A stretch of 32,000 bases of DNA, taken from positions 1,170,001 through 1,202,000 of the forward strand of contig CP149973.1 in assembly GCA_029269845.2 (NCBI GenBank), written 5' to 3'. The notes under the pieces were generated by a model. The model was not told the origin of the DNA. It worked only from the letters and a program-made list of their open reading frames with translations, and ran no database searches. The DNA comes from Opitutia bacterium KCR 482. Its GTDB lineage: Bacteria > Verrucomicrobiota > Verrucomicrobiia > Opitutales > Intestinicryptomonadaceae. Of this stretch, positions 2,496 to 30,940 are shown piece after piece. A program made the translations under genes and the position numbers. Position 1 is the stretch's first letter, and each line of letters opens with the position of its first letter.

Positions 2496-3245
2496 ATGAA
2501 CTGCCTGATTTTCCCAACCCCGCCCCCGTTCAAGCTTGCGCCCGACAGCCCCAAGCTCGAGCATGTCGAAAAAGTCCTAAAAGCCGCCGACGGCGGCACG
2601 GTCTTTGCGGGTCAGGCAAACGGCGGACTTTTTGTATGCAAATTCGAAAAGCTCGCCGACGGCGGCGCGACGCTCACGCCCATTTCCGACGCCCCGAATC
2701 CCGCCCCGCTCGCGGCGTCCGTCGCCGTCGCATTCGCCCGCCCGCAGATTGCCCAGCGCATGCTCTTCGAAGCCGCGTGTTTCGGTGTAGAAAATCTGCT
2801 ATTCTACGCCGCGTCGAAAGGCGAGGCAGACTACGCAAAAAGCGGGCTCTACGCGCGCGGCGAATACGCCAAATGGCTCGAAAAAGGCGCGGAGCAGGCG
2901 TGCGCGACTTCCATTCCCTCGTTCTCCACCGCGTCGAGCCTCACCGAAGCCGTCGAAATGCTCGACGCCCTCGCCCCGCGCGATTCCCTGAAAATCGCTC
3001 CCGACCTATACGAGGCAACTGCCGCTCTCCACGACGTTTTGGATAAATCTCCCGACCTCCACGTCAAGGGTATCCTCGGCAGCGAGCGCGGCTTCTCCAA
3101 CCCCGACCGCAACCTCCTCCGCCTCAACAACTACACCCTCGTCTCCCTCGGCAACCGCGTCCTCCGCACCGACACTGCCCTAATCGCCACCCTCAGCAGG
3201 GCAGGCTGCAGCCTGCACGGCACGGAACTTCGTTCCTTTCTGTGA
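2496..3245 (+). CDS. Hypothetical protein (249 aa)
   Basis: Long ORF with the GC3-rich codon usage of the neighbouring genes. I recognise no motif. The last ~15 codons are encoded by repeat copy A. Confidence 0.6.
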   Translation: MNCLIFPTPPPFKLAPDSPKLEHVEKVLKAADGGTVFAGQANGGLFVCKFEKLADGGATLTPISDAPNPAPLAASVAVAFARPQIAQRMLFEAACFGVENLLFYAASKGEADYAKSGLYARGEYAKWLEKGAEQACATSIPSFSTASSLTEAVEMLDALAPRDSLKIAPDLYEATAALHDVLDKSPDLHVKGILGSERGFSNPDRNLLRLNNYTLVSLGNRVLRTDTALIATLSRAGCSLHGTELRSFL

Positions 3246-3596
3246 TAATACGGCGCGGCTATAACCGCGCCTTTTCCCGATTAGTCCGTATTGCCTGCGG
3301 CAATTACTGGCGTTGGGATATGTGATATTGGGAAAGAAACAAATTAGAATAGACGCGCTTTGCGCGGAGAGAAAAAAAGCGGAAATCCGCAAAACATGGA
3401 ATTTCCGCTTTTTTGTAAACTTAACTTTTATCCCAGCGCAACTTAAAAATCTTCCGCGCCGTGCGCTGTAATTTTAGGGGCGTCAAAATGCCCCTATAAG
3501 AGTGGCTTTCCTGTATTCGCAGGGCGCGTGGCGTACTTTCGTACGCGAGCGGTCTGCGAATACAGGGAAACGCTGTTAGAGGGGCGTTTTCACGCC
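3201..3596. repeat. Copy A of a ~396-nt hairpin-dense repeat (candidate large structured ncRNA or structured MITE-like element)
   Basis: Collinear with 17851-18247. It has many stem-loops, several with compensatory differences between the copies, and no credible ORF. Confidence 0.7.
3372..3414. terminator. Intrinsic terminator hairpin inside repeat copy A (bidirectional in this copy)
   Basis: A7, then GCGGAAATCC/GGAATTTCCGC (10 bp with one bulge), then T6. Confidence 0.55.
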
Positions 3597-4768
3597 CCTA
3601 CCGAGGAGGCGATTTCATCACTTAGTGTGTGAGTGAAGTATTGCATTACCACTGCGTGCGACAACCTGCCCCAATGTTCGTCGTCGGAGCACGCAAGCGC
3701 GTATTTGTGCACAACTTCGTCCGCGGGTCTTTGGAATATAACCGTGTTGGAATACGGATTTTTCCACGCCTTCACGCCGCGTTTAAGCAGGGCGCGGTAG
3801 AAATATTCGGCGTTTTCGAGGACGGCGTTCGCCTGTTTGCGCATGCCCTCCCTGCCCGCGACGGATATGCGCCAGTAGAGTTTGAGGGCGTCGAAACCGC
3901 TTCTGGAACACGAAATTGTGGGAATCACCCCGTTAAGGTAGGGCACGGGGTTGTTTTGCACGTGCGACAAAATCTCCCTGCGGCAGACGAAAATTCCCGC
4001 GGGCTCGTTCAGCCCGTAGAACTTGTGCCCCGAAACGGCGATTGAGTCGAAGCCCATTACGCTTGCGTCGAGGATTTCGCGGGCTTTGGGGTCGTCGAGG
4101 AAAGGCAGATAGCCGCCAAAGAGCGCGGCGTCTAGGTGCTTGTAGACGAAGGGCGGATTGACTTTTTTGACGACCTCGTCGATTGCGCGCTGGTCGTCGA
4201 TAGCCCCCTTGAAAGTGCCGCCGATTGCGATTGCGATGAGCGCGGGACGGTCGGGCGCAAGCTTTTTTTCGAGATCGGAGACGTCCATTTCGCCCGACTC
4301 GTGGGCGCGGATTGTGCGCGTTTCGATGTCGAGAATGTCGCCGAGTTTCTTGACCGAATAGTGGGCCTCGTCCGAAACGTAGAGGACGGGCGGAATGTCC
4401 GACTTCGCCGCGAGCGCGGTTCTGCCGAAATAGACGCCGTGCATGTTGCCGTCGGTGCCGCCGTTTGAAATCACGCCCCAGTGGTCGCCGCCGAAGCCGA
4501 AGGAGTCGGCGACAAAGTCGATGCACGCGCGTTCGAACTCGTCGGTGTGGAGCATGTCCCACTGCGTTTTGTAGGGGTCGCCGACGTTGATGAGGGTGAG
4601 GTCGCACAGCCCCGTATCGACGAGCCACTGGTAGAAGCCCGCGAGGCTCGTTTCCTGGTCGAACGGATAGCCAAGCTGCTCGAACTTGCGCGCGCGCAGG
4701 TTTGCGGCAAGCGCATCGAGTTTCTTCATTGCTTCGGCATTCGGTTTTTTGAATCTTTCCATGGACAT
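3590..4768 (-). CDS. PLP-dependent group II decarboxylase, histidine decarboxylase-like
   Basis: SGHKF PLP-lysine motif, GGTDGNMHG, HYSVKK, and HLDAALFGGYLPF. The length (392 aa) and motif order match Gram-negative PLP histidine decarboxylases. Confidence 0.8.
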   Translation of the reverse strand: MSMERFKKPNAEAMKKLDALAANLRARKFEQLGYPFDQETSLAGFYQWLVDTGLCDLTLINVGDPYKTQWDMLHTDEFERACIDFVADSFGFGGDHWGVISNGGTDGNMHGVYFGRTALAAKSDIPPVLYVSDEAHYSVKKLGDILDIETRTIRAHESGEMDVSDLEKKLAPDRPALIAIAIGGTFKGAIDDQRAIDEVVKKVNPPFVYKHLDAALFGGYLPFLDDPKAREILDASVMGFDSIAVSGHKFYGLNEPAGIFVCRREILSHVQNNPVPYLNGVIPTISCSRSGFDALKLYWRISVAGREGMRKQANAVLENAEYFYRALLKRGVKAWKNPYSNTVIFQRPADEVVHKYALACSDDEHWGRLSHAVVMQYFTHTLSDEIASSVGA

Positions 4769-8920: not shown

Positions 8921-9033
8921 GCCCGCCGCGCCCAAAATTCCGACGCGCAGACGCGCAGAATACCCGTTTGCGCAAAACATACCCGTTTTTTAGTTTGGAC
9001 AAAATCGGGACAAAATGCGATAATCTTCAATCT

Positions 9034-11079
9034 ATGAAGAAGAAATACGCTTTGTTGGGGAAGATTTTCGCCGCCGCCGCATTCGTTCTCGCGCTGGCCG
9101 GCTGCGAAGAAAGAGGAATCACAATTTACGACGCGTCAAACTCTCCCGACGGCAAGCCGTTCGAGCTTACGCGCAAAACGCCGCTGGTAGTCAACGGCGA
9201 ATGGGACTTGTCGAAAAACCTCGACTTCCTCGTGGAGTTCGAAAGCGTCGGCGAATCCGGCGACGTTGTGAGAATCAGAATCAACGACGGCACGGCGACG
9301 GAGCGCGACGGAAACCCGTCGGTCGCCTCCTACCGCGTCGCCAAGGGCGAAAAAGGCTCGGCGGTAATCTCCTACCCGCCCGTACCCGCGCACCCAGAAA
9401 TTCTCGACGACATGAAAATCATGCGCACAAACCCGTTCTTCCGCGGCGACAGAATTTCGTTCCCGAAAGACTTTTCAAAAATCAAAAGGCTCACAATGTT
9501 CTCGCGCAACGCCGGCGCGAAAATCAGGATAAAGAAAATCGTAGCCCTCGACACTTCGGCGAAAAAATACCCCGAATACTTTTCGTACACAAGGGAGCAG
9601 TTCTTTCCGTTCATCGACAAATACGGACAGTTCAAATTCGGCGACTGGAAAGGGAAAATCCGCACCGACGCCGACATCAAAAAGGCGGTCGCCGAAGAAG
9701 AGAAAGACCTCTCCGCAAACCCGCAGTCGCCCGAAGGCTGGACAAAATACGGCGGCTGGGCGAACGGCCCGAAGTTGGAGGCAACGGGGCACTTCCGCGT
9801 GCAAAAAGTGGACGGCAAATGGTGGCTCGTAGACCCCGAAGGCAGGCTGTTCTGGTCGCACGGCATAGTCAGGGTCTCTCCGTCGAGCGCAATCACGCCC
9901 CTCGACGGACGCGAATACTACTTCGAAAACCTCCCCAAGAAGGACGACGAATTCGCCCTCTTCTACACGACAAAAGACGAGCTTCTCGCGCCCTACTACA
10001 CCAAGCGCGGACTGAAAAAAACCTACGACTTCTCCGCCGCAAACATCTACCGCAAATACGGCAAACAGTGGCGCGAAAAATTCGCCGACTCCGCACACCG
10101 CAGACTCCGCAGCTGGGGGCTTAACACGATAGCGAACTCGTCCGACTCTTTCATATTCCTTCAAAAAAAGACTCCCTACGCCGAACGCTTCGAAATCCAT
10201 TCGCGCCCGATTTCAGGACACGAAGGCTGGTGGTGGCCGATTGCCGACCCGTGGGACGCGTCGTTCGTCAAAAGCATAAACGACAACCTCGACCGCCGCG
10301 CCGAACAGCTCGAAGACCCGTTCTGCATAGGCTATTTCGTGGACAACGAGCACCACTGGGGCAGCCCAGATACGATTGGCAGAAATGTATCGATTTCGCC
10401 CGCCGACCTGCCCGCAAAAATCGAGTTCGCAAAAGACCTCAAAGCCAAATACGGCGACATCGCCGCGCTCAACAAGGCATGGAAGACAAACTTCAAATCG
10501 TGGGACGACTTCCTCGCCAACGACAAAAACCCCGTAAACGCCGACAAAAAAGACCTCTCCGCGTTCTCCGAAAAATTCATCGGCAATTATTTCAAAACCA
10601 TTCGCGACACAATCAAGGCGCGCGTGCCGCACATGCTCTACATGGGCTGCCGCTTTGCGGGGTCGAACGAAATCGCGCTGCGGCAGGCGGGCAAATACTG
10701 CGACATCGTAAGCTACAACCGCTATTCAGACTCTCTCGCAACGCTCAAGCTTCCCGAAGGCGTGGACAAGCCAATCATGATTGGCGAATTCCATTTCGGC
10801 GCGCTCGACAGGGGGCTTTTCCACCCGTCGCTGGTGCTGGTGAAAGACCAGAAAGACCGAGGACAGCACTACTACGACTACGTCAAATCGGCACTTGAAA
10901 ACCCCGCAATAGTGGGCACACACTGGCACCAGTTCTCCGACCAGTGCACGGCGGGACGCTTCGACGGCGAAAACTTCCAAGTGGGCTTCACCGACGTCGC
11001 CGACCAGCCCTACCCCGAAACGATAAACAAAGCGCGCGAAATAGGCTATAAACTCTATAAAACGCGCTACGGGAAATAA
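9034..11079 (+). CDS. Exported (lipoprotein) TIM-barrel glycoside hydrolase with an N-terminal beta-sandwich domain (clan GH-A-like; family not assignable by eye, agarase/GH50- or GH42-like)
   Basis: Lipobox LALAGC after the internal ATG at 9034. Candidate catalytic motifs are FVDNEHHWG and MIGEFHFG. It is a paralog of 20405..22594. Confidence 0.8.
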   Translation: MKKKYALLGKIFAAAAFVLALAGCEERGITIYDASNSPDGKPFELTRKTPLVVNGEWDLSKNLDFLVEFESVGESGDVVRIRINDGTATERDGNPSVASYRVAKGEKGSAVISYPPVPAHPEILDDMKIMRTNPFFRGDRISFPKDFSKIKRLTMFSRNAGAKIRIKKIVALDTSAKKYPEYFSYTREQFFPFIDKYGQFKFGDWKGKIRTDADIKKAVAEEEKDLSANPQSPEGWTKYGGWANGPKLEATGHFRVQKVDGKWWLVDPEGRLFWSHGIVRVSPSSAITPLDGREYYFENLPKKDDEFALFYTTKDELLAPYYTKRGLKKTYDFSAANIYRKYGKQWREKFADSAHRRLRSWGLNTIANSSDSFIFLQKKTPYAERFEIHSRPISGHEGWWWPIADPWDASFVKSINDNLDRRAEQLEDPFCIGYFVDNEHHWGSPDTIGRNVSISPADLPAKIEFAKDLKAKYGDIAALNKAWKTNFKSWDDFLANDKNPVNADKKDLSAFSEKFIGNYFKTIRDTIKARVPHMLYMGCRFAGSNEIALRQAGKYCDIVSYNRYSDSLATLKLPEGVDKPIMIGEFHFGALDRGLFHPSLVLVKDQKDRGQHYYDYVKSALENPAIVGTHWHQFSDQCTAGRFDGENFQVGFTDVADQPYPETINKAREIGYKLYKTRYGK

Positions 11080-11148: not shown

Positions 11149-11967
11149 TCAGTTCGGCGTTTCGGGAATGAATCGCAGAGTGCGCAGGTTGCCGATTTTC
11201 CTTTTGTTTTCGAGCGCGTCGCCGAGCGGCGAGGTTTGGCTTTCGAAAGTCTCTTCGCCGCCGCCGTAAACTTCGTACGATACTTTTCCCTCCGCGCCCC
11301 AACGCCCGTTTATCAAACCGCCTTTAAGCTCGGCGACGTTTGCGCCAAGCACTTCGCAGACTTTTTCGGCGCGGGGGTCGATTATGTATTTTTCATACTC
11401 CGACTCAAAGTATACCGCGCCGTTCCGCAACGCGTAGACGGAGAAATTTCCGCGCCCGCAAGTGTCGAGAGAAATTCCGACGGTTTTGCCGCTTTCAAAT
11501 TTCACGCGCCTGTCGAATTCGGGACAAAGCGCGGGCTTTCTTTTAAGCTGCAATTCGAATTTCGGCTCGGCGGGAATTTCGACTGATTCCCACATCGTAA
11601 ACAATGCCCACAGCGACACCGCAAACACCGCAGCCGCAACCGCCGCCGAAATAAGAACCCCCGCCGCAAAAGACAACAACGTTTTGAAAAAAGAGAATCC
11701 GCACTTGCGCGCGTAAAACATATGGGCAAGAAAGCCCGCACAAAACACAGGCAAAATTCCCGCAATAATCGGCGTAAGAAAGTTCGGAATTGGAGGAATG
11801 ACGCGCCACGCGCCCACCACGGAAAACGGCGCAATAAGCCCCATCGCCGCACATACGGCGGGCACACTTTTGAGCGTGGCGGCAATAAAACCCGTGCCGC
11901 GGCGAAAGAAAATCCACGCGGCGGCGGAAATCCCCATAAGCGCGCAAGCTGCAATTAATGCCGACAT
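11149..11967 (-). CDS. Membrane protein (about 4 N-terminal TM helices plus a soluble C-terminal domain), hypothetical
   Basis: 272-aa ORF with a hydrophobic N-terminal half and normal codon usage. Confidence 0.65.
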   Translation of the reverse strand: MSALIAACALMGISAAAWIFFRRGTGFIAATLKSVPAVCAAMGLIAPFSVVGAWRVIPPIPNFLTPIIAGILPVFCAGFLAHMFYARKCGFSFFKTLLSFAAGVLISAAVAAAVFAVSLWALFTMWESVEIPAEPKFELQLKRKPALCPEFDRRVKFESGKTVGISLDTCGRGNFSVYALRNGAVYFESEYEKYIIDPRAEKVCEVLGANVAELKGGLINGRWGAEGKVSYEVYGGGEETFESQTSPLGDALENKRKIGNLRTLRFIPETPN

Positions 11968-11980
11968 CGCAGAATTTCTA

Positions 11981-12327
11981 CCCTACCCCACCCGTCGGGT
12001 CAAGAAATACCGCCAACAATCATCGAGCAAAAGCAACGCAGGCATAACGAGACAAACGACGTACGCGTGTAAATATTCCCTCCTACACGAAAATGAAGCA
12101 CGACAAATAAAATGCCGCCCCAGCCACACAAACGCAGGACAAACAACATAAGCGTACTACCTACCCTACGAATAGGAATGCGACAAAGCAGAATTCCCCC
12201 AACCGAGCAAGGACAAACAACAACGCAAGCGCGGCAATTTCCGCCGCAAAACATAAACGAATCGGCATAAGCTATCGCCCCTCCCAACGCGAAAGCGCAA
12301 CAAGCGAAATACGCGCCCGCCCCACCC
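11981..12327. other. Strongly strand-asymmetric tract, A+C-rich on the plus strand and G+T-rich on the minus strand
   Basis: My counts: 12001-12060 is A28 C17 G11 T4, and 12181-12240 is A24 C19 G12 T5. The tract is bounded by the near-repeats CCCTACCCCACCC (11981-11993) and CCCGCCCCACCC (12316-12327). Confidence 0.6.
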
Positions 12328-12354
12328 ACGCGAGAGCGAAGCGACTCGCGCCTC

Positions 12355-12424: not shown

Positions 12425-12512
12425 ATCTACTCATAGGAATGTGGTGAGCTACAAATGCAAAAAAATCCGACGCAACCGCAGCACCCCACAAAAAATATCA
12501 CCATGTAATATT

Positions 12513-12564
12513 AAAAAAACGCGATATTTCGGACAGCGTGAAAGTCCCAAATATCGCGTTTTTT
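12513..12564. terminator. Long bidirectional intrinsic terminator
   Basis: A7, then CGCGATATTT-C-GGAC-AGCGTGAAA-GTCC-C-AAATATCGCG, then T6. Confidence 0.7.
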
Positions 12565-12617
12565 CGCTAAACCTCCCGCGCGGCGGCTGCCGCGCTGTCG
12601 AGGCTTGCGAGGTTGCA

Positions 12618-12905
12618 CGCAGAAATGCGGCTTTGCAAAGCAAGGCGACGGGAGTGTACTCTCGTACATGACCGAAGCCGCGCGAGCGAAACGCATTTAT
12701 ACGCCGACCCCGCAAGCCCTCCTAAATCTCCTTGCACGCATTAAGCGTGCCATCACTATCCCGCAGAAATGCGGCTTTGCAAAGCAAGGCGACGGAAGAG
12801 TACTCTCGTACATGACCGAATCCGCGCAAGCGAAACGCATTTATACGCCGACCCCGCAAGCCCTCCTAAATCTTCTTGCACGCATTAAGCGTGCCAACAC
12901 TACCC
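12618..12905. repeat. Tandem repeat, 2 x 144 nt, structured units
   Basis: Units 12618-12761 and 12762-12905 differ at about 7 positions. The array abuts the stop codon of the lipoprotein gene at 12907. Confidence 0.9.
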
Positions 12906-15988: not shown

Positions 15989-16822
15989 TCAGTGCTCCCT
16001 GAGGTATTTCAGATTTTTTTCAATAATCGGGAAGGAATCCCTGTATGTGCCGTCCTCTATCACGAAAAATCCGTCGAAGCCCTGCGAATCCACCTCTTTC
16101 AGAATCGCCTCCATGTCGAGAACGCCCTCGCCGTAGACCGCGCAACCGCTTTTGAGGTCGCCGAATTTCTGCTGGTCTTTGAGGTGTATTTCGATGAGCT
16201 TGCCGCGCACGCTCTTGAAACCGCCCACGACATCAAGCCCCGATCGCGACCACGCGCCGTTGTCGGCGCAAATGCCCACGTTTTTGTAGTCTTTGAGGAT
16301 AGTCATCAGGAACGCGGGGTCGAAGTGGCGGTAGGCGGGGTTGTCGGGCTTGCGCTCGTGCGAATGCAATGCCATTTGCAGTCCGTACTCGGCGCAGATT
16401 TTGTTCCAAATCGGAATGGTGTCCTCCATAGCCTCGGTGACGACGGTCCTTGCGCCCATTTCAGCCGCGAACTCGCAAACCTTGCGGATATCGGCTTCGG
16501 TCTTGCCACCCACGCAGCCGTACGAAACCATCTGAATGCCGTTGTCGGCGAGAAGTTTTTTTGCGAACGCCTTTTGCTCGGCGGTCATGTTGTGGCTGAA
16601 TTTTGCGTTGGGCAGTTTGTCGGAAAGAGACTGGCCGGGGTAGCATTCAACATACTTCACGCCCATCTTCGCCAATCGTTCGACGGAATAGTCGAATTTG
16701 TGGAAGTGCGTAGACCACATCTGAACCGCAATCTTGCGCGGCCGTTTTGTTTCGGCCGACATGCACGAGCAAAGCGCGAAAACCGCCGAAACCGCCGTCA
16801 AGACAAAGAGTAATTTTTTCAT
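15989..16822 (-). CDS. Exported sugar phosphate isomerase/epimerase family protein (xylose isomerase-like TIM barrel), paralog 1
   Basis: Signal peptide MKKLLFVLTAVSAVFALCSC. Clearly paralogous to 16974..17804 and 18265..19086 (shared KKLLADNGI, ALH(S/N)H and LHFKD/IHLKD motifs). Confidence 0.85.
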   Translation of the reverse strand: MKKLLFVLTAVSAVFALCSCMSAETKRPRKIAVQMWSTHFHKFDYSVERLAKMGVKYVECYPGQSLSDKLPNAKFSHNMTAEQKAFAKKLLADNGIQMVSYGCVGGKTEADIRKVCEFAAEMGARTVVTEAMEDTIPIWNKICAEYGLQMALHSHERKPDNPAYRHFDPAFLMTILKDYKNVGICADNGAWSRSGLDVVGGFKSVRGKLIEIHLKDQQKFGDLKSGCAVYGEGVLDMEAILKEVDSQGFDGFFVIEDGTYRDSFPIIEKNLKYLREH

Positions 16823-16916
16823 GGTAGCAGTCTACAAAACCGGCGCGGGGAATCAAGGCCAAACGTCGCGAACGGTGGAAAAGTCAAAATAGTGAAAGGA
16901 CGCGGCTACAGAGCAC

Positions 16917-16942
16917 AAAAAAGGCGCGGAATCGACCGCGCC
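16917..16942 (-). terminator. Rho-independent terminator after the 16974..17804 gene
   Basis: Read on the minus strand: GGCGCGG-TCGATT-CCGCGCC followed by T6. Confidence 0.7.
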
Positions 16943-16973
16943 CGAAATTTCGAAAGCCGAAGCGAAAGGATTT

Positions 16974-17804
16974 TTAGTGCGAGCGCAAGTACTCCACGCA
17001 CTCTTTGACTTCCGCGAGGTTGTTCGCAAAATTGTCCTCGTACTCAATCATGAAGTAGCCGTCGTATTTCTGGCGGTCGAGTTCCGCCAAGAGCGCGGGC
17101 AGGTCGAGAACGCCCTTGCCGTATGGAACGGTCTTCGCTTTGAGGTCGTCGAACTTGCTCATGTCCTTGAAGTGGAGCATTGCGATTTTCCCCTCCAAAA
17201 TCTTGTACGCCGCGACGCCCTGAATGCCCGAACGCGCGTAGTGCCCGTTGTCGGGGCATGCGTAGACGTTTTTATAGTCGCCGATTGCCGCGCGGGTGAT
17301 GTTCGGGTTGAAGTAGGAGTTGCGCTTTACGATGTCGGAAGCGTGGTTGTGGAGAGCCATTTTCAGACCGTACTGCTGGCAGTATTTGTCCCATAGCCCG
17401 ATTGTGCTGCCGACGGATTCCGTCAGAATCAGCGGAATGTCGAACTCTTTTGCGAATTCGCACATTTCCTTGATTTTCGCCTCTTCCGTGGGAGTGCGCA
17501 CGCCGAAGCTTGCGATTTTTATGCCGTTGTCGGCAAGAAGCTTTTTCAGATACGCCTTCTGCTCGGCATTCATCTCGGGCCCCGTCTTGACCTTCGGGAA
17601 TTTTGCGCTAAGCGCGGTGCTCGAAAGCCCGATTGCGTCCACCCCCATGTCTTTGAGAAGCGGAATAACCTCGTCGAGATTGCGCTTGTAGAACGTGAAC
17701 ATTGCCACGCCCACTTTGCGTTGCGGTTTTGTTTCCCCCTGCTTGCTCGGACAGCACCCGAACATAAGCAGAGCAGCCATCATGTATATCAATACTCTCT
17801 TCAT
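16974..17804 (-). CDS. Exported sugar phosphate isomerase/epimerase family protein (xylose isomerase-like TIM barrel), paralog 2
   Basis: ATG at 17804 gives MKRVLIYMMAALLMFGCC. The track start at 17825 is a GTG. Confidence 0.85.
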   Translation of the reverse strand: MKRVLIYMMAALLMFGCCPSKQGETKPQRKVGVAMFTFYKRNLDEVIPLLKDMGVDAIGLSSTALSAKFPKVKTGPEMNAEQKAYLKKLLADNGIKIASFGVRTPTEEAKIKEMCEFAKEFDIPLILTESVGSTIGLWDKYCQQYGLKMALHNHASDIVKRNSYFNPNITRAAIGDYKNVYACPDNGHYARSGIQGVAAYKILEGKIAMLHFKDMSKFDDLKAKTVPYGKGVLDLPALLAELDRQKYDGYFMIEYEDNFANNLAEVKECVEYLRSH

Positions 17805-17850
17805 ACGTTTGAGATATTGAACCACCCCAGCCTAAAAAATCAAGCCTAAA

Positions 17851-18247
17851 GCAGGCTGCAGCCTGCACGGCGTCGGAACTTCGTTCCTTTCTGTGATAAT
17901 GCGGCGCGGGTATACCCGCGCCTTTCCCCGTTTAGTCCGTATTGGCTTCGCCAATTACTGGCGTTGGGATTATTTTATGTTGGGAAGAAACGAATTAAAA
18001 TAGACGCGCTTTGCGCGGATAAATAAAAAACGGAAAACCTAAAACAAAGGTTCTCCGCTAACTCATTAACTAAACTTTTATCCCAGTGCACCCTAAAAAA
18101 CTTCGTGCGCCAGCACTCACTTATTAGGCGCGTCAAAATGCTTTCATAAGGGTGGCTTTCCTGTGCACGCAGGGCGCGTGGCGTACTTGACGTACGCGAG
18201 CGGTCTGCGGGTACAGGGAAACGCCCTTAGGGAAGTATTTTCACGCG
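17851..18247. repeat. Copy B of the ~396-nt hairpin-dense repeat
   Basis: Collinear with 3201-3596 in the same orientation. The flanking sequences are unrelated. Confidence 0.7.
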
Positions 18248-18264
18248 CCGTCTCGCGCCGTATC

Positions 18265-20404: not shown

Positions 20405-22594
20405 ATGAGAAAGAAACTGCCGACACTCGCGGCGGCGTTGCTCTTCGCCGCCCTGCCCGCGCTGGGCAACATGGAAACGGTTTTCGAGGAAGACTTCGAA
20501 AATCCCGAAACGAGCAAATTCGCGGAAGTCGCAAAATTCGAGCCTGAAATCGCCACGGAAGTCGCGGGCAGCAAGGCGATATCGGGCAACGGCTCGATGA
20601 TGTTCGACACGCGCGGAAAAAACTGGGGCTGGCAATCTATATGCACCATTCCGCTGAACAAGGAGGGAATTTACAGACTCTCGCTAACATGCAAACTGCT
20701 CGAAACCGAAAATAACAAACACGTGGCAGTCGCAGTCGCCATGCGCGAAATCAAGAACGGGGAAAAGACGCGCATCTCCGCCCGCTGGATTCAGAAAGAC
20801 AACAAAAAGGACCATAAAAAAGCGCAGAGAATAGAAGTCGCCGGCAGGCTTCCGTCAAATTCGGGCGAATTCGACATCGTCGCCGAGCGCGGAATTAAAA
20901 TCGAAATCGACGACATCAAAATCGAAAAATTCACCGCCGACCCCAAGGGCGCGTGGATGTTCGACAACGACGCGTTCATCGGCATGACATTCACGCCCGC
21001 CAACCCCGAATTCCACAACTTCAAGGAGAAATTCCTGAACTACTCGAAGGAGGAGTTCTTCCCGTTCATCGACAAGTACGGACAATTCAAACACAAAGAC
21101 TGGATTGACAAAATCACCTGCGACGAAGACTTCGCAAAACGCATGGAGGCGGAAAAGAAGTTCTACAAGAAAATCGGAAAAATCCCCAACCGCGACCAGT
21201 TCTGCGGGCTCGTTCGGGAAGACCAAAAATACGAAGCTACGGGGCACTTCCGCGTGCAGAAAATCGACGGCAAATGGTGGTTTATCGACCCCGAGGGCAA
21301 CCTGTTCTGGTCGTTCGGCATAACCTGCGTCGGCAACCTCGACCTCACGCCGATTACCGACCGCGAATCGTACTTCGAAGACGTCTCCGACAAACGCTTC
21401 ATGAAAAAATCGAACTGGGGACTGCACTACTATAAAGACAAAGTTTACGACTCCTACGGATTCCTCGAACGCAACCTCGTGGCGAAATACGGCGACAATT
21501 ACAGGGAAGTTTACGGAGACGTCTCCGACGAGCGCATGCGCATGTGGGGCTTCACAACCTACGGGTGCTGGTCGCAACACTACATCATAAGCAGGGGCAA
21601 CTTCCCGTTCACGGCGATTGCGACGTCGGGCAAGGCGGAAAGCTTCAAGACCGACGTAAAAATACACGCATATTGGCGCGACTTCCCCGACTTCTTTACG
21701 CCCAATTTCGAGGAAAACACCTTCAAACGCGTAGCGCAGCTTTCCAAACTCATAAACATGCCCGCATGCGTCGGCGTGTTCGTGGACAACGAACTTCCGT
21801 GGCAGTTCAAGCCGCTGACGACAATCAGGGCGCTGCTCGGCTGCCCCGCGACACAGTATTCGAAAATCGAATTCCGCAAGGATTTGGAGGCTAAATACGG
21901 CACAATCGAAAAACTCAACGAAGCGTGGAACGCAAAATACGCAAGCTGGGACGACTTCCTCGCCAAGCGCGACTTCTTCCCGAGAACAAAGGCGGGCGAA
22001 ACCGACATGCTCGCATTCGAGGAGAAAATCTACGTCCGCTACTTCAAGACCTGCCGCGACGCAGTAAAGGCGGCGGCTCCGAATACGCTGTATCTCGGCT
22101 GCCGCTTCGCGTGGAGAAATACGCTTGTAGAGAAGGTCGCCTCGCGCTACTGCGACGTCATCAGCTACAATGTATACTCCGACAACATTACAGCATTCTC
22201 GCCCGTGAAGGGCTGCGAAGACAAACCGTCGCTCATCGGCGAATTCCACTTCGGGAACACCGACAAGGGCGTGTACGGCGGCGGGCTCAATCCGCGCGTG
22301 ACGGTCGAAGCCCGCAAAAAGGCGTTCGAAAACTACGCAATCAGCGCATTCGAAAACCCGAATGTCGTGGGAGCGCACTGGTTCCAATGGTTCGACCTTT
22401 GCACGGCGGGACGCTTCAACGCAGCAAACTACGCAATCGGCTTCGTGGACATCTGCGACACGCCCGACTACGTGATAGTGAAAGCCGCCCGCAAGCTCTC
22501 GCAAAAGATGTATAAACTAAGACTCAAAGGCGGACAAAGCACAACCCAGAGCGTGGAATCGACAAAAGCCGTCATCGACCTCGACGAAAAATAA
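20405..22594 (+). CDS. Exported TIM-barrel glycoside hydrolase, paralog of 9034..11079
   Basis: Signal peptide MRKKLPTLAAALLFAALPALG. Shared blocks include FFPFIDKYGQFK, ATGHFRVQK(I/V)DGKWW, FVDNE, IGEFHFG and CTAGRF. Confidence 0.85.
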   Translation: MRKKLPTLAAALLFAALPALGNMETVFEEDFENPETSKFAEVAKFEPEIATEVAGSKAISGNGSMMFDTRGKNWGWQSICTIPLNKEGIYRLSLTCKLLETENNKHVAVAVAMREIKNGEKTRISARWIQKDNKKDHKKAQRIEVAGRLPSNSGEFDIVAERGIKIEIDDIKIEKFTADPKGAWMFDNDAFIGMTFTPANPEFHNFKEKFLNYSKEEFFPFIDKYGQFKHKDWIDKITCDEDFAKRMEAEKKFYKKIGKIPNRDQFCGLVREDQKYEATGHFRVQKIDGKWWFIDPEGNLFWSFGITCVGNLDLTPITDRESYFEDVSDKRFMKKSNWGLHYYKDKVYDSYGFLERNLVAKYGDNYREVYGDVSDERMRMWGFTTYGCWSQHYIISRGNFPFTAIATSGKAESFKTDVKIHAYWRDFPDFFTPNFEENTFKRVAQLSKLINMPACVGVFVDNELPWQFKPLTTIRALLGCPATQYSKIEFRKDLEAKYGTIEKLNEAWNAKYASWDDFLAKRDFFPRTKAGETDMLAFEEKIYVRYFKTCRDAVKAAAPNTLYLGCRFAWRNTLVEKVASRYCDVISYNVYSDNITAFSPVKGCEDKPSLIGEFHFGNTDKGVYGGGLNPRVTVEARKKAFENYAISAFENPNVVGAHWFQWFDLCTAGRFNAANYAIGFVDICDTPDYVIVKAARKLSQKMYKLRLKGGQSTTQSVESTKAVIDLDEK

Positions 22595-22633
22595 TCCCCA
22601 AGGCAGCCACACAAATTTTCCACCAAACAAAAA

Positions 22634-22660
22634 CGTCCGATTTTCATCGGACGTTTTTTT
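22634..22660 (+). terminator. Rho-independent terminator
   Basis: CGTCCGAT-TTTC-ATCGGACG followed by T7. Confidence 0.8.
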
Positions 22661-22778
22661 CGCCTTTTGCAGAAACGATAGCCTGCAAAATACAGGCGAA
22701 TTGAACAATGAAAGCCCAAAACGCAATCCGCGCACAAAAAGCTTTATGTAAAAGTGAAAAATCTTATAGATTTTCCGC

Positions 22779-23162
22779 ATGAAAATAGACCATGTCGCAA
22801 TTTTTGTTAGGAATTTAGAGGCTACTAAAAATTTCTACGTTAAATATTTCAACGCCGCCGTAAACAATAAGTACCGCAACAACAAGACTTTGCTTGAAAC
22901 CTATTTTCTCTCCTTCGACTCCGGAACGCGGCTTGAAATAATGTCGCGCCCCGACTTATTTGAAGGCTCAAATGAATTATTAAGAACGGGATTGATTCAT
23001 CTTTCCTTCAAACTTGGCTCGGAAAAATTAGTTGATTCAAAAGTAAAACAACTGGAATCGGACGGATACAAAATTATCAGCAATCCCCGCACAACAGGCG
23101 ACGGCTATTACGAAGCATGTGTTTCCGACAATGAAGGCAATTTCATTGAAATCATTGCATAG
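22779..23162 (+). CDS. VOC-family (glyoxalase/bleomycin-resistance/dioxygenase fold) protein
   Basis: MKIDHVAIFVRNLEATKNFY is a typical VOC N-terminus. The protein is 127 aa and the gene is visibly AT-richer than its neighbours. Confidence 0.8.
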   Translation: MKIDHVAIFVRNLEATKNFYVKYFNAAVNNKYRNNKTLLETYFLSFDSGTRLEIMSRPDLFEGSNELLRTGLIHLSFKLGSEKLVDSKVKQLESDGYKIISNPRTTGDGYYEACVSDNEGNFIEIIA

Positions 23163-23340
23163 CTCCATTCCCCGCAACCACAGCATTAGCGCGCCCGCGC
23201 AGTTGTCTTCGGCGGGCTTGCCGTTTTTACTTTGACAATATCGGCATGCGTTCAATAGAATCTAATTTAATTTGGATAGTGGCGATGGCGCATTTTAATG
23301 CTTGGCGCAAAACCGAAGGCAATCGGCAAAAACTCTATAT

Positions 23341-23844
23341 ATGATAAACAAAAGGCTCTCAAAAATATCCGTTGGCGCAATAACGGCATCGGTCATTCTG
23401 CTCGCACTGGCTCATACTTCATATGCAAGAAATGCCGACGAAATAAAGCCGCAAAGCATTTGCGCGGCGTCGGGGAAGCCCTATCAAAAAGCAATTAAAA
23501 CCGATTCCGGAAGCGTGCAAGCGTGGATTCTATCGGGCAAGGCTGACGAATCTGTTGAAATGACGCTCAAAGAAGCACCCGAAGGATTCCGCGGTCTCAG
23601 AATAGAAATTGAAACAGCTCCGCTCGAAAATGCAGACGCGTCGAAAGAGAACGTTTACAGAGCCGTATCTTACCAGATAGACCCGACGTCGGGAAAGGAA
23701 ACAAACAAAATCAAAAGCCCGTTCGTAAGGGGAAAGATATCAGGCACTCCGTTTAAGGGCAAAAAAATGGAGTTGGAATCATGCTATCCGGCAAAAGCGG
23801 GCTTAGCAGTTAAAATAAGAATCGAGCGCTTGTACCGTAAGTAA
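23341..23844 (+). CDS. Secreted hypothetical protein (167 aa)
   Basis: ATG at 23341 gives a signal peptide ending LLALAHTSYA. The gene is AT-rich. Confidence 0.6.
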   Translation: MINKRLSKISVGAITASVILLALAHTSYARNADEIKPQSICAASGKPYQKAIKTDSGSVQAWILSGKADESVEMTLKEAPEGFRGLRIEIETAPLENADASKENVYRAVSYQIDPTSGKETNKIKSPFVRGKISGTPFKGKKMELESCYPAKAGLAVKIRIERLYRK

Positions 23845-23958
23845 AGATAGAAAAGGGTAATGGGAATGTTTGAAACGGGGGAATGGGAAAAGGGTTGGAT
23901 TGGTTGTAATCGCGCGACGGTGGGTACGGTTTTTTTGTGTTTTTCGTAATCGGCCGCG

Positions 23959-24039
23959 TTCGGCGAAAGGATTGCCGTTTTCTTGCCGCGGCTTGGCGGA
24001 AGGGTTGCCGCCCTCTTGCCGCAATTTGGCGGAAGTTTG
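23959..24039. repeat. Short tandem repeat, about 2.5 copies, period 33-34 nt
   Basis: TTCGGCGAAAGGATTGCCGTTTTCTTGCCGCGGC, then TTGGCGGAAGGGTTGCCGCCCTCTTGCCGCAAT, then TTGGCGGAAG. Confidence 0.7.
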
Positions 24040-24149
24040 TTTTTTTTAGTGAGCCGCGGAGGTTCGGCGGGGGTACCGTTTTCAAAAGGGTTGCTTGCGC
24101 CTCGCGGTGTTTTTTCGTCCGCCCTCCGCGTGTGTTGCGGTTGTCGCGT

Positions 24150-25361
24150 CTATCGCGAAATCAGCCACTCGATGCGCGAGACGAAATCCTCGCAGTCGGG
24201 TTGGTTGTCGTTGCCGAGCGTCAGCGTCCGCGTGCCCGTCGCAAGGTCTATCGACTCCGACTGCACCTGCGCGTCGATTCCCGCGAGGTTGTCGCGGCTG
24301 TCCGCAATATTCAGGCGTTTACCCGCGTAGCGCATCCGCAGGTTGCGGTCGAAGAGCACAACGCTGCCCGTGTATTTGTCGCGGTTGACAATCGACTTCA
24401 ACTGCGCGAGCAGCCCCTGCGCGTCGACCGTTTTATTCGAAAAATTGTCGTCGGAAATGTCTATCGAAACGACCACCACGTTGCGCTGATTCGCCGAAAC
24501 TCCCTCGGCGGCGCAGTCGTCGAAGCCTTTGTAGTGCAGCCACGAACCCGTGCCGCCCGTCGTATTGCCCGTCTTGTTTTTGACGAGTCGCAGAATCACG
24601 CGCCGTTTGCGCTTGATGTCCTTTGTAAGAGAAATGTCGGTGCATATGCCGACGGGCACGCTCACGACTGCGCACTTTTGCGCCGCCTTAATCGAGAGCG
24701 TCGGCTTGTCGGCCGAGTAGTCGAAGGCGGACATCAGTTCGGGGTGCCACTTTGCGATGCTCGAAAAAATATCGGCGAACATTGGCGACTCCTTTTCCTC
24801 GTACGGAAGGAGGAGCTGCGAGTCGAAGTCGATGCCCGATTCGGGAATGTCGAAGAGCGCGGCGTTGTCGGTTTTAGCGAACGCCGCCAACACGTCATTT
24901 TTGAAGAACTGCTCCGCCGACCAGCTTTCATACTGCGGTTCCTCGTACTGCACCGGTCCGCCCGTGGAGCTCCACCAGTACTCGGTTTTTTTCCCGAAAA
25001 GCTGGACTTTCGTGAGGTCGCGGACGTTCGGAATGTTGCCGATTAGAATCGGCGGGAACCACGAATTTTGGTACGGAGTGGATTCGAACACGTCCCAGAA
25101 GCCTTTTGCGGAGAAGTTCACGGAGTCGCCGTTTGCCGATTTGCCGACGGTCGGCTCTTGGAGAAAGCCCGCGAAAATCCGCGCGTCGCCGTCGAAGACC
25201 TCGACGCGTGTTTCCGCGTCGCGCCAAGCGTTGCGGAAGCCGAGCTTGGGCGTGGAGAACGAAAATTCGTCCGCCGCGAAGCTGTTGAACGTGAGCATTG
25301 CCGACTCGCAGCCCCATTGGGGGAGAGTCCGTTTTTCGCCGCCTATTTTAAGAGTCGTCAT
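24150..25361 (-). CDS. Phage tail protein downstream of the tape measure gene (distal-tail or hub/gpD-like)
   Basis: The start overlaps the tape measure stop (ATGA at 25358-25361). The N-terminal region pattern and the gene's position fit a Dit/hub protein. The family call is positional. Confidence 0.6.
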   Translation of the reverse strand: MTTLKIGGEKRTLPQWGCESAMLTFNSFAADEFSFSTPKLGFRNAWRDAETRVEVFDGDARIFAGFLQEPTVGKSANGDSVNFSAKGFWDVFESTPYQNSWFPPILIGNIPNVRDLTKVQLFGKKTEYWWSSTGGPVQYEEPQYESWSAEQFFKNDVLAAFAKTDNAALFDIPESGIDFDSQLLLPYEEKESPMFADIFSSIAKWHPELMSAFDYSADKPTLSIKAAQKCAVVSVPVGICTDISLTKDIKRKRRVILRLVKNKTGNTTGGTGSWLHYKGFDDCAAEGVSANQRNVVVVSIDISDDNFSNKTVDAQGLLAQLKSIVNRDKYTGSVVLFDRNLRMRYAGKRLNIADSRDNLAGIDAQVQSESIDLATGTRTLTLGNDNQPDCEDFVSRIEWLISR

Positions 25362-28630: not shown

Positions 28631-28642
28631 TTTTTGTTTGAA

Positions 28643-28954
28643 TTAGAGGTTTGCCTTCATCGCGTCGTTGCCCGCGGCGATAATGTTGCCGAGGCTTTCG
28701 GCGGCGGCCGCGTCGAAGCGCGGAATGAATAGCGGCGCGAGGTCTTCGGCGGTCGGGTATTCGGCGCGGGAGTCGCCTTTGAGCATCGCCCACGCGAGAA
28801 TTACCACCGTCGAAATTCTCGCCGCCGCAGAGCCGCGCTTGTCGGCGAGCGCCTGCATTTCCTCGGCGGTGCCGCCCGCGCGTTCGTAGCGGAAGTACGC
28901 CTGCGCGTCCCAGGCGACCGCGATTTTCTTTCCGTTGATTTCGATTTCCGTCAT
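28643..28954 (-). CDS. Putative tail assembly chaperone (103 aa)
   Basis: It lies immediately upstream of the tape measure gene. ATG at 28954 is preceded by GGAAAGGAA. The N-terminus MTEIEINGKKIAVAWD resembles chaperone families. The call is mostly positional. Confidence 0.55.
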   Translation of the reverse strand: MTEIEINGKKIAVAWDAQAYFRYERAGGTAEEMQALADKRGSAAARISTVVILAWAMLKGDSRAEYPTAEDLAPLFIPRFDAAAAESLGNIIAAGNDAMKANL

Positions 28955-29015
28955 TTTCAAATTCCTTTCCGTTTGAAAAAATCCGCCGCGGGGCATTGCC
29001 CTGCGGCGGCGTATT

Positions 29016-29735: not shown

Positions 29736-29750
29736 TTGTCGGTTCCTTTC

Positions 29751-30458: not shown

Positions 30459-30483
30459 TTTTGTTTTTTTGAGGTTCGAAATT

Positions 30484-30936: not shown

Positions 30937-30940
30937 CGGT

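Follow-up and report, generated by a model that had tools for sequence, protein, structure and literature searches.

A previously undescribed mosaic family of hairpin-dense intergenic repeats in gut Opitutales (Verrucomicrobiota)

Much is known of small structured interspersed repeats in Proteobacteria and Firmicutes, but to our knowledge they have hardly been studied in Verrucomicrobiota. The BOX element of Streptococcus pneumoniae and S. suis is a composite intergenic repeat with a variable number of boxB units; its insertions alter the ends of open reading frames (ORFs), and related species carry alternative end modules (PMC3049150). REPIN hairpins are about 70-110 nt long, show frequent compensatory changes and are predicted to form in single-stranded DNA (ssDNA) or mRNA (PMC3116915). 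SPRITE is a dispersed repeat resembling a Rho-independent terminator, with a GC stem and a U-rich tract, and is found preferentially close to where convergent genes end (PMC3049150). ERIC and Correia elements are imperfect palindromes of about 100-150 nt that form long RNA hairpins when co-transcribed and affect mRNA processing; Correia elements can also provide promoters (PMC3049150).

Copies A and B, their family and its modules

Within the 32,000-nt stretch of DNA analysed here (the window), two copies in the same orientation, A (3201-3598) and B (17851-18249), can be aligned over their full length. BLASTN gave 82.3% identity over 402 columns (E-value 5e-108) and a global alignment 333 of 403 positions (82.6%) with nine gap columns, in line with the four-fifths estimated by eye in the preliminary description. 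No further full copy lies in the window, which holds one more related locus:

Third related locus, 12599-12905, + strand: two tandem 144-nt units

Each of these units consists of a hairpin resembling H7 of copy A (listed below) and a divergent "beta" hairpin module (12599-12719 and 12762-12847), and model R1 scores them at 58.5 and 28.9 bits on the + strand. A DUF6528 gene (12907-, − strand) converges on the array and has its stop codon 1 nt beyond the array's end, and a bidirectional terminator-like hairpin lies at about 12507-12566.

Three trivial explanations are refuted by the data: chance similarity by the BLASTN E-value, an assembly artefact by the presence of the same loci in independent assemblies from several projects, and a small protein-coding gene by the behaviour of its only candidate. 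This candidate, a short ORF on the + strand (MIMRRGY...), is seen repeatedly, but it is absent, frame-shifted or variable in length in half of them, and the substitutions track stems, not codons. No small ORF is conserved across copies, as expected from the preliminary description, which had seen no credible ORF.

That description had also suggested searching for further copies and comparing the element with Rfam. A 21-mer scan of genome and metagenome collections retrieved six loci from UMGS1069 (an uncultured Opitutales), four from Opitutia UBA4654 and further contigs of the window's own species. Together with nhmmer and covariance model searches, this brought the number of related copies to more than 20, from at least three genomes of gut Opitutales, with over 20 modules of the 5′ type and about 15 of the hairpin type, a sample biased toward copies that retain the exact 21-mer. 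A and B are thus members of a previously undescribed repeat family. No Rfam family matched, including GOLLD, ROOL, HEARO, OLE, raiA, Acido-Lenti-1 and attC-type motifs: Rfam 15 gave no match in the whole window at the gathering score, and in E-value mode A and B returned generic long-hairpin noise only (plant miRNA precursors at 27-37 bits, with cut-offs of 100-105). An Rfam search with an archaeal look-alike gave nothing real, BLAST of copy B against phages and plasmids gave no match, and pattern scans of viral contigs found nothing.

The family is mosaic. Full-length copies are 77-85% alike, and the modules are also found separately, truncated, in tandem arrays or with alternative partners. 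The number of hairpin units is one in A, B and L005, two in L010 and at 12599-12905 of the window, three or more in L022 and L004, and zero in L020, L006 and L007. This architecture is reminiscent of BOX, which likewise is built from separate modules, has an internal self-folding module in variable tandem number and alternative end modules, would be highly base-paired if transcribed and changes ORF ends on insertion. There is, however, no sequence similarity between the two, the hosts belong to Firmicutes and Verrucomicrobiota, respectively, and the repeated unit of about 190 nt with its 125-nt hairpin is far longer than boxB.

The ends differ as well. The element begins with GCAGGCTGCAGCCTGCACGG... 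and finishes with ...TTTCACGCGCCGT; on the right, conservation in the family goes slightly beyond the end given in the preliminary description (to about 3602 in A and 18253-18261 in B), and in copy B it may start some 30 nt further left (17820-17850). While boxA and boxC carry mutually pairing terminal inverted repeats (TIRs), no TIR was recognised in the Opitutales element, whose ends are unpaired in the fold and which forms local hairpins only. An apparent terminal repeat (CACGGCG... on the left, ...CGCCGT on the right) was discarded, being true only of copies with a GCAGGC-type H0. The flanks of A (…CTCAGCAGG on the left, TACCGAGG… on the right) and of B (…AGCCTAAA and CTCGCGCC…) have nothing in common and reveal no target-site duplication, and the same applies to the other copies. 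The preliminary description would have recognised a MITE by near-identical copies with target-site duplications; with 77-85% likeness, no TIRs and no duplications, the family does not have this profile.

The copies are dispersed over unrelated loci. The proteins flanking different copies are unrelated, the site syntenic to B is a spacer of 70 nt in one relative (73% amino acid identity) and holds unrelated DNA in another (78%), and site A has different neighbour genes in relatives. Neighbouring copies share their orientation (three of three in the window, two of two in both L010 and L001), and GC skew on the element strand is negative in 13 of 18 copies, with tiny values. That the family is mobile we infer from this distribution; the window encodes no transposase, and the copies revealed neither TIRs nor a target duplication nor a shared target sequence.

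Pairing, the 5′ module and the terminator-like hairpins

Both strands fold far more strongly than shuffled controls; for copy A, the minimum free energy is −195.7 kcal/mol on the + strand (z −11.2) and −178.8 kcal/mol on the − strand (z −11.5). The features of copies A and B are as follows (strand given where one was assigned).

Copy A, 3201-3216: H0, perfect 16-nt palindrome GCAGGCTGCAGCCTGC, within the last 15 codons of an rsmE-like ORF (2496-3245)
Copy A, 3224-3236: H1, GGAAC-TTC-GTTCC, followed by conserved unpaired CTTTCTGTGATAAT (3236-3249)
Copy A, 3252-3275, + strand: H2, GGCGCGG-CTATAA-CCGCGCC followed by TTTT, intrinsic-terminator-like, 6 nt past the rsmE stop codon
Copy A, 3284-3311, + strand: H3, extended hairpin around ATTGCC-TGC-GGCAAT (core 3290-3304)
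Copy A, 3354-3366: H6, CGCGC-TTT-GCGCG, with conserved GAAAGAAAC...TAGAAT/TAAAAT upstream (3334-3350)
Copy A, 3372-3408, − strand: T2, hairpin 3379-3408 followed on the − strand by a U-run (A-run 3372-3378 on the + strand)
Copy A, 3423-3466: head of the 3′ unit, with conserved AACTTTTATCCCAGCGC...TTAAAAATCTTC and H7, a small hairpin (GCGC-CGT-GCGC, 3456-3466)
Copy A, 3474-3599, + strand: imperfect hairpin module of 126 nt, R1 135.6 bits on + versus 66.4 on −
Copy B, 17851-17887: H0 (17851-17866) and H1 (17875-17887), with TGTGATAAT at 17892-17900
Copy B, 17903-17925, + strand: H2, GGCGCGGG-TATA-CCCGCGCC followed by TTT
Copy B, 18005-18017: H6
Copy B, 18029-18059, − strand: T2 (H6 and T2 block 18005-18059), 12-bp hairpin followed by TTTTATTTAT on the − strand
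Copy B, 18124-18250, + strand: hairpin module of 127 nt, R1 138.8 bits on + versus 58.2 on −
Copy B, through 18261, + strand: repeated short CGCGCCGT tail directly after the hairpin module

Checked against the sequence, the hairpins listed in the preliminary description lie exactly where it placed them (3290-3304/17941-17955, 3252-3271/17903-17922, 3379-3408/18031-18056 and the long stem at 3507-3522 with 3554-3570 in A and 18157-18172 with 18205-18221 in B). Its view that the A/B differences are concentrated in compensatory stem changes was overstated: about 24 of about 61 substitutions fall in stems, the majority in loops and linkers, although those in stems all preserve pairing. Among the 111 pairs of the A/B joint fold, ten show double-sided changes with pairing kept, four have gained or lost a G·U by a change on one side, and no pair has been disrupted. 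This structure was predicted from the same two sequences, and the independent test is provided by the multi-copy alignments, in which covariation in the hairpin module and the 5′ helices bears out the proposed selection on pairing rather than on sequence.

In the 5′ module of about 170 nt, comprising H0-H3 and H6, 98.8% of the helix cells are paired, compared with 87.8% in shuffles, and 47 cells show double changes, compared with 13. These helices are strictly Watson-Crick on both strands and carry no strand signal. The H0 palindrome GCAGGCTGCAGCCTGC heads copies in three genomes, with alternative GC hairpins in its place in others. H1 has one compensatory variant (CCGAAC/GTTCGG, in L010); the near-invariance of its region is partly an ascertainment effect because the loci were fetched with this 21-mer. 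The inner pairs of H3 covary (G:C, C:G, A:U), and a longer hairpin is inserted at its apex in other copies. Long-range helices in this module (U-tract/GAAA, ATAAGTTCG/CGAACTTAT and GAUAA/UUAUC) were dropped, with one-sided changes and no covariation.

H2 has the make-up of an intrinsic terminator on the + strand and is therefore regarded as a putative one. Its 7-9-bp GC stem covaries among 22 copies (GGCGCGG/CCGCGCC, GCGGCAAC/GTTGCCGC, GGTGGCAAC/GTTGCCACC), and of the T-tract 3′ of it, three T's are invariant in all 22 and the fourth position is T in most. T2 has the opposite polarity. In all nine copies, it is more stable on the − strand, where 5-8 U follow the hairpin and 36 of 157 pairs are G·U, compared with 4 of 101 on the + strand; the middle part of the element as a whole is 3-14 kcal/mol more stable on the − strand in eight of eight copies. 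We predict T2 to be an intrinsic terminator of the − strand only, for transcripts arriving from the right. Both hairpins have the look of SPRITE, and the right end of the element abuts converging genes, too, but SPRITE is a single hairpin unit and the Opitutales element carries two opposed terminator-like hairpins in a multi-module cassette of about 400 nt.

The strand-specific long hairpin

Each 3′ unit starts with the conserved AACTTTTATCCCAGCGC...TTAAAAATCTTC and H7, a head found again in L004, L022 and L010 at the start of every tandem 3′ unit; the H7 stem is GCGC/GCGC in A and GTGC/GCAC in B. The hairpin module of about 125 nt then follows. In its alignment with 46 pairs, 93.5% of the cells are paired, compared with 79.3% in shuffles and 29-53% in slid controls, and 24 pairs have changes on both sides, a number reached in none of 500 shuffles. 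G·U outnumber A·C cells by 75 to 1 and are confined to few fixed columns, and the R1 scores of the hairpin modules are 98-139 bits on the + strand and 15-66 on the − strand. Conserved features are the G·U pairs, an asymmetric internal loop and a helix, GGCUUU/GAAACGCC, that is invariant and contains a bulged C. The long hairpin thus appears to be constrained additionally as a single strand in + orientation, be it as antisense RNA or as ssDNA.

The module shares with REP, BIME and REPIN sequences the extragenic, multi-copy and mosaic occurrence at the 3′ ends of transcription units and in clusters or tandem arrays, and with REPINs the long imperfect hairpins with common compensatory changes (PMC3116915, PMC3337134). 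Yet the REP unit of 20-40 nt with its conserved 5′ tetranucleotide was not recognised by eye in the Opitutales element, the arms of whose long hairpin are not themselves palindromic and show no GTAG-type motif by eye. The hairpin is conserved over its whole length, the REPIN only at its two terminal 16-mers; oriented terminator-like hairpins and a large, non-palindromic 5′ module further distinguish the element from REP. ERIC and Correia elements are imperfect palindromes of similar size that fold as long hairpins, but they are MITEs with TIRs and target duplications, of which the Opitutales element has neither, and their effect depends on the direction of co-transcription, whereas here one strand is consistently favoured.

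An unlikely interpretation, which deserves weighing, is a self-contained + strand gene for a non-coding RNA (ncRNA), with a promoter in the 5′ module (TGTGATAAT, or TAAAAT before H6) and the 125-nt hairpin or hairpins as the functional part. Such an RNA would run antisense to the neighbouring gene's 3′ end, and the role of T2 would be to protect the promoter from converging transcription. The + strand pairing, the two- to three-fold higher model score on this strand and the constant order of 5′ module, T2 and hairpins fit such a gene. So does TGTGATAAT (3241-3249 in copy A, including the rsmE stop codon TGA at 3243-3245), which looks like an extended −10 box on the + strand and is retained in 9 of 12 window-type copies, with TGTGATACT in most UMGS1069 copies; the tRNA-Met promoter of the same species (TTGCAA-17-GATAAA, a single case) makes a GATAAT-type −10 box plausible in this organism. 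However, a σ70 consensus scan of copy A found a single weak site, on the + strand, the same scan of B found nothing, and no conserved −35/−10 pair was found across copies on either strand. H2 with its T-tract would fall at +1 to +25 of the transcript, no terminator follows the hairpin on the + strand, hairpin units number 0-4, are often truncated and also occur without the 5′ module (e.g., at 12599-12905), and there is no Rfam relative.

The related proposal of the preliminary description, a single structured RNA of about 400 nt, is unsupported, since adjacent modules are optimised on opposite strands (T2 on −, the 125-nt hairpin on +), the terminator-like H2 would lie within the supposed + strand RNA and the family is multi-copy and dispersed over unrelated loci. 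What was taken for one RNA is a chain of modules that also occur apart, truncated, in tandem or recombined. Of the two options offered there, a structured RNA or a structure-dependent mobile element, the latter is nearer to the data.

A non-autonomous ssDNA transposon of the REPIN/PATE type is one form that such an element could take, which we judge rather unlikely. Its hairpins would be recognised by an HUH transposase (Y1, RAYT/IS200-like) encoded elsewhere, and the terminators would be passengers or later adaptations. The lack of TIRs and target duplications, the strand specificity of the long hairpin with its conserved mismatches and bulges, the shared orientation of neighbouring copies, the presence or absence at a syntenic site among relatives and the compensatory changes known from REPIN hairpins (PMC3116915) agree with this idea. 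There are also many small hairpins with 3-nt loops, some of which contain GCGAAGC. This sequence forms a DNA mini-hairpin of unusual stability. Strand-specific imperfect hairpins with conserved unpaired bases and without TIRs or duplications are likewise typical of attC sites and of IS200/IS605 elements (PATEs, omega-RNA/HEARO). On the other hand, neither a RAYT/Y1 transposase nor TnpA/TnpB is encoded within the window, the left flanks share no target sequence and no HEARO or IS605-type Rfam match was obtained. The 5′ helices are Watson-Crick on both strands, variation between strains takes the form of patchy conversion, not of excision and insertion, and the polarity of T2 and its U-run make sense only as RNA, which we count against this reading.

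The attC core sites (RYYYAAC...GTTRRRY) are missing or misordered: a GTTAGGC-like sequence lies at the 5′ and not the 3′ end of the hairpin, in few copies only. Moreover, attC sites are separated by ORF cassettes, and the tandem units here are contiguous and without ORFs. We therefore rejected attC and, with no reverse transcriptase, domain V or aptamer match, also a retron, a group II intron and a riboswitch; a guide RNA was discarded because the variable region is a paired stem and not a single-stranded guide.

The strand on which the 125-nt hairpin is optimised is the antisense one with respect to the mRNA normally expected to run through it, an arrangement for which the transcription-stop function proposed below gives no reason. 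A doubtful but more far-reaching thought is that a mobile cassette carries, in this hairpin, a strand-specific functional nucleic acid of a new class. As RNA, it could be an antisense or protein-binding RNA with its promoter in the 5′ module and T2 as a shield; as ssDNA, it could be the structure recognised by a transposition or recombination system yet to be discovered, one that also drives allele swapping between strains.

Gene context, strain variation and the proposed role

The copies occupy whole intergenic spacers and are all intergenic or overlap only the ends of ORFs. The right end usually falls within 15 nt of a converging gene's stop codon, with distances of −12 to +14 nt across nine copies. 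In copy A, both converging ORFs terminate inside the element, whose last approximately 12 nt (…TCACGCCCCTAC) are the last three codons and the stop of a decarboxylase ORF (3590-4768, − strand), for which a 99% relative was used in place of an exact record. To the right of copy B, the stop codon (18265) of a converging TIM-barrel gene follows 14 nt past the module and 3 nt past the tail.

The left side is less uniform. A gene starts there at a distance of 20-50 nt, pointing outward, in 8 of 14 copies, among them B with a diverging TIM-barrel gene about 46 nt away (ATG 17804, − strand), and H0 is often followed on the − strand by a U-run just ahead of the ribosome-binding site of this gene. One could thus imagine a cis-regulatory leader or attenuator that is read on the − strand and controls the gene to the left. 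This is very improbable, considering that in copy A and five others a gene ends on this side, which leaves nothing to regulate, that the downstream genes are unrelated and that the 5′ helices have no strand signal while the long hairpin favours the other strand.

At the same sites in other strains, internal patches are exchanged for alleles of other copies. At site A of strain L012, the first 80 nt are 100% identical to copy A, and the remainder is about 80% identical to A and 95-98% to other copies; at site B, strain L019 equals copy B except for a 75-nt hairpin core matching L003/L023. The flanking DNA in both cases is 98-99% identical.

With moderate confidence, we favour the interpretation of the A/B family as a BOX/BIME/REPIN-like structured intergenic repeat that acts as a two-way transcription-stop cassette. 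From the left, the cassette would consist of the GC hairpins H0 and H1, H2 as the + strand terminator, a core of about 100 nt with H3, GAAAC, TAAAAT and H6, then T2 and, on the right, one to four tandem units of about 190 nt, each closed by the imperfect hairpin of about 125 nt. Transcripts from the left would stop at H2, in copy A 6 nt past the rsmE stop codon, while those from the right would pass the hairpin units and stop at T2. The genes starting to the left in 8 of 14 copies would then need a promoter within the cassette or read-through of T2. Termination at both hairpins is deduced from their sequence and pairing; transcription of either strand and the way in which new copies arise are likewise inferred. 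Recombination and gene conversion among copies would allow the family to persist and diversify.

The family is abundant in poorly known human-gut Opitutales, with three loci in the 32 kb analysed here. It rewrites gene ends, as both genes next to copy A take their stop codons from the element, and probably sets transcript boundaries. It also breaks metagenome assemblies, as contigs L013 and L017 end inside the element, and, varying between strains by cassette-like swapping, it might serve to tell strains apart. The element combines a predicted terminator on one strand with a long hairpin optimised on the other and offers a testable case of whether selection acts on it as RNA, as ssDNA or as both.

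A multi-copy family of structured repeats

The co-oriented, end-to-end repeat formed by copies A (3201-3598) and B (17851-18249), which the preliminary description had judged by eye to be about four-fifths identical, was recovered by BLASTN (82.3% identity, E 5e-108), and in a global alignment 333 of 403 columns were identical, with 9 gap columns. Using an exact search with the conserved 21-mer GGAACTTCGTTCCTTTCTGTG, we identified six loci in uncultured Opitutales UMGS1069, four in Opitutia UBA4654 and further matches on metagenome contigs from the window's own species. When the fetched DNA was searched with profile and covariance models, the tally rose to more than 20 copies of the 5′ module (~170 nt) and about 15 of the long-hairpin module (~125 nt); because the loci were retrieved via the 21-mer, its near-invariance is partly ascertainment, and these counts are of retrieved copies. 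The flanking proteins are unrelated between different copies. Model searches also detected a third locus in the window, a 144-nt tandem repeat (12618-12905) with two divergent long hairpins on the + strand (58.5 and 28.9 bits); a DUF6528 gene converges on this locus, which ends 1 nt short of that gene's stop. The repeat is a multi-copy family that extends beyond the A/B pair. As suspected earlier, a conserved ORF is absent; the single large non-coding RNA then envisaged gives way to a structured multi-copy mosaic repeat. The Rfam search that had been proposed returned no matching model, and searches of phage, plasmid and viral contigs gave no match. The finding is real, statistically solid and new to the databases searched.

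Two short-read contigs break inside the repeat, L013 at its end (8650) in copy A and L017 at its start (position 1) in copy B; the family thus causes breaks in metagenome assemblies from these organisms. The H0/H1 hairpin region has a 92% match over a 36-nt stretch, [GC hairpin]-TGCACGG-AA-GGAACTTCGTTCCTTTCTGTG, in an Aenigmatarchaeota MAG (L009, 472-506) and a Rifle groundwater contig (L018, 6742-6776). This stretch is part of a spacer rich in hairpins, ~200 nt upstream of an archaeal pilin-like gene, has no second occurrence in its contig and no Rfam match, and may reflect chance or a common motif.

Modular anatomy and conserved pairing

Read on the + strand, the element consists of the following parts, H0-H3 and H6 making up the 5′ module.

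H0: one or two GC hairpins, in several alternative sequences
H1: GGAAC-TTC-GTTCC, then the conserved unpaired CTTTCTGTGATAAT
H2: GC stem of 7-9 bp with a TATA loop, then a T-tract with its first three positions T in 22/22 copies
H3: ATTG[variable hairpin]CAAT
Conserved linker and H6: GAAAC, TAAAATAGA, then CGCGC-TTT-GCGCG
T2: an A-run, then a hairpin
3′ units: one to four, each ACTTTTATCCCAG...CTAAAAAnCTTC with a small hairpin (H7) and the ~125-nt imperfect long hairpin

These modules occur in different combinations. Locus L020 has the 5′ module and terminator and nothing else, L022 and L004 have at least three hairpin units, L011 carries 5′ modules in tandem, and the UMGS1069 copies have their first ~95 nt in common and different modules beyond. 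The tandem in L011 (7250-8000, UBA4654) comprises at least three 5′ modules, interrupted by a run of N and each preceded by a hairpin, GAGGCGGATTTTGC...GCAAAATTCCTCCGCCTC, which also stands ahead of the L022 copy in the window's species. In UMGS1069, inverted AATGAATAATGAATAAT repeats of ~30 nt bracket a ~230-nt segment after the 5′ module:

L006, 192-420: one orientation
L007, 3250-3510: the same orientation
L010, 6880-7110 and 3450-3660: inverted in both copies
L002, 2425-2650: inverted

This segment looks like an invertible, inverton-like element, seen only as states of paralogous copies.

Every hairpin of the preliminary description was found at its reported position. Copy A folds at -195.7 kcal/mol on the + strand (z -11.2 versus shuffled sequence) and at -178.8 kcal/mol on the - strand (z -11.5). 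The joint fold of A and B (n = 2 copies) predicted 111 pairs, with ten double-sided changes retaining pairing, four one-sided changes via G·U and none broken. The claim that A/B differences are concentrated in compensatory stem changes was overstated, as it holds for ~24 of ~61 substitutions, the remainder lying in loops and linkers. The proposed selection on pairing was borne out in multi-copy alignments, in which pairing exceeded shuffled controls and, for the long hairpin, slid controls. For structures derived from the same sequences, and against column shuffles that ignore relatedness, 93.5% of long-hairpin cells (12 copies, 46 pairs) were standard pairs versus 79.3%, and both sides had changed in 24 pairs, a number reached by 0/500 shuffles; likewise, 98.8% of H1-H3 cells were paired versus 87.8% (22 copies), with 47 double-change cells versus 13. 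When the 3′ partners of the long hairpin were slid by 1-3 columns, 29-53% remained paired. Despite both caveats, the slid controls and the variety of pair types make the conclusion that pairing is selected robust.

Strand polarity and placement at gene ends

The long hairpin contains 75 G·U cells and one A·C cell, the former mostly in nine columns, several of which are near-invariant (U·G 12/12, G·U 11/12, U·G 10/12). At identical loci, its covariance model scored 98-139 bits on the + and 15-66 bits on the - strand, and in most copies the + fold was favoured by 13-22 kcal/mol. From these three observations, the long hairpin is constrained as a single strand in + orientation. In 9/9 copies the T2 hairpin gains both length and stability when read on the - strand, with 36 G·U pairs there and four on +, and a U-run follows it solely on - (9/9 copies). 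Judged by sequence, T2 has the hallmarks of an intrinsic terminator acting on transcripts that would enter from the right. H2 has the same terminator-like look on the + strand; variation in H1-H3 consists strictly of Watson-Crick double changes and carries no strand signal.

Two genes converge on copy A:

2496-3245, + strand: RsmE-like methyltransferase gene, left neighbour
3590-4768, - strand: PLP-dependent decarboxylase gene, right neighbour

Both ORFs end within copy A, whose left end supplies the final 15 codons and TGA (3243-3245) of rsmE and whose right end supplies the last three codons and stop of the decarboxylase gene; decarboxylase homologues reach the same length and end in ...IADDIAG or ...IATLK. 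Copy B is flanked by two - strand xylose-isomerase-like TIM-barrel genes: 46 nt separate its beginning from the start codon of the first, and 14 nt separate the end of its hairpin module from the stop of the second. In nine copies with a long hairpin, the distance between the right end and a converging gene's stop codon is -12 to +14 nt. Overall, a converging gene end borders the element on the right in ~10/14 cases; on the left, a diverging gene start follows at 20-50 nt in 8/14 and a gene end in 6/14. By these positions, the cassette fills the entire spacer, at the usual location of a terminator.

We lean slightly toward a mosaic repeat resembling BOX, BIME and REPIN elements that would serve as a portable cassette between genes, carrying putative terminators of opposed direction. 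H2, 6 nt past the rsmE stop in copy A, would halt transcripts entering from the left, those entering from the right would cross the hairpin units and halt at T2, and recombination between copies would maintain and shuffle the family. The data show that the copies form one family, are modular and covary, that their modules have strand polarity, that they associate with gene ends and that alleles are swapped between them; transcription, actual termination and the origin of new copies we infer. The optimised strand of the long hairpin, antisense to the converging mRNA, falls outside this account and is addressed by two rivals. A + strand RNA could be driven from within the cassette, where TGTGATAAT makes a good candidate for an extended -10 box (a tRNA-Met promoter of the species is TTGCAA-17-GATAAA), but H2 would then fall at the RNA's extreme 5′ end, and no + terminator follows the long hairpin. 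Alternatively, the hairpin could be a single-stranded DNA recognition structure for a putative HUH-type transposase; the REPIN precedent (PMC3116915) is consistent with this, as is the absence of TIRs and TSDs, yet neither a target motif nor an excision event came to light, nor did an enzyme of this kind. The window contains no transposase, and a probable prophage forms its right end. Six copies, A included, have no left-hand gene to regulate, which makes a - strand leader for such a gene unlikely.

Exchange between copies and relation to known repeats

In a same-species strain from the Hadza gut, an element occupies the position of A within ~98-100% identical flanks. Its first 80 nt equal A; the rest is ~80% identical to A and in places 95-98% identical to other copies, some in UBA4654. 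At site B, another strain equals B save for a 75-nt hairpin core carrying the allele of L003/L023. These swaps indicate that many paired changes did not arise in place but were inherited as whole patches by gene conversion; the swapped alleles themselves differ through compensatory substitutions. Internal duplications bounded by a shared GGAACTTCG in L003, L023 and L011 point to unequal recombination between copies. The B-syntenic spacer is 70 nt without an element in a relative at 73% protein identity and holds unrelated DNA in another at 78%, so the element was gained, or prior sequence replaced, in this lineage.

In a related species (L025, 4200-5000), the B-syntenic spacer is 800 nt of unrelated GC-hairpin-rich DNA with internal direct repeats (…GCGCGGAGAAGTTTTCG… twice), and this spacer seems prone to gaining hairpin-rich sequence. 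Strain L012 lacks a colinear counterpart to 12037-12324 (288 nt vs 115 nt); the region 11970-12330, between the gene at 11149-11967 and the third repeat locus, is strongly A+C-rich on + (GC skew -0.25, AT skew +0.47). Strain L017 (369-421) lacks ~930 nt (16588-17521), and a 53-nt overlap at the junction suggests recombination of the adjacent paralogous TIM-barrel genes (15989-16822, 16974-17804) into a fused gene. The TIM-barrel cluster containing copy B is flanked by two long paralogous ORFs (8968-11079 and 20405-22594) with weak Glyco_hydro_42 matches, whose DNA is 70-82% identical over several blocks (9586-10520 vs 21041-21966). Homology to L019 (same species) ends at 22594, beyond which L019 (7150-11689) carries tRNA-Ser and tRNA-Met; 22594-32000, with unannotated and phage genes including a tape-measure protein (25358-28630), is probably a strain-specific prophage or island.

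BOX is nearest in architecture, being composite with a variable tandem internal module and independent folding, although its terminal repeats pair; SPRITE is nearest for the terminator-like parts and the bias to convergent gene ends (both PMC3049150). REPIN is nearest for a long hairpin with compensatory changes, possibly acting as single-stranded DNA (PMC3116915). The MITE considered earlier was rejected, as TIRs, TSDs and near-identical copies are all lacking, and the defining features tested for attC sites, IS200/IS605 derivatives and every Rfam family were likewise absent. On these comparisons, the element is filed as a new family within a known kind of element, a member of no named family. 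What makes it worth following up is a strand-specific 125-nt hairpin adjoining a putative terminator of opposite polarity.
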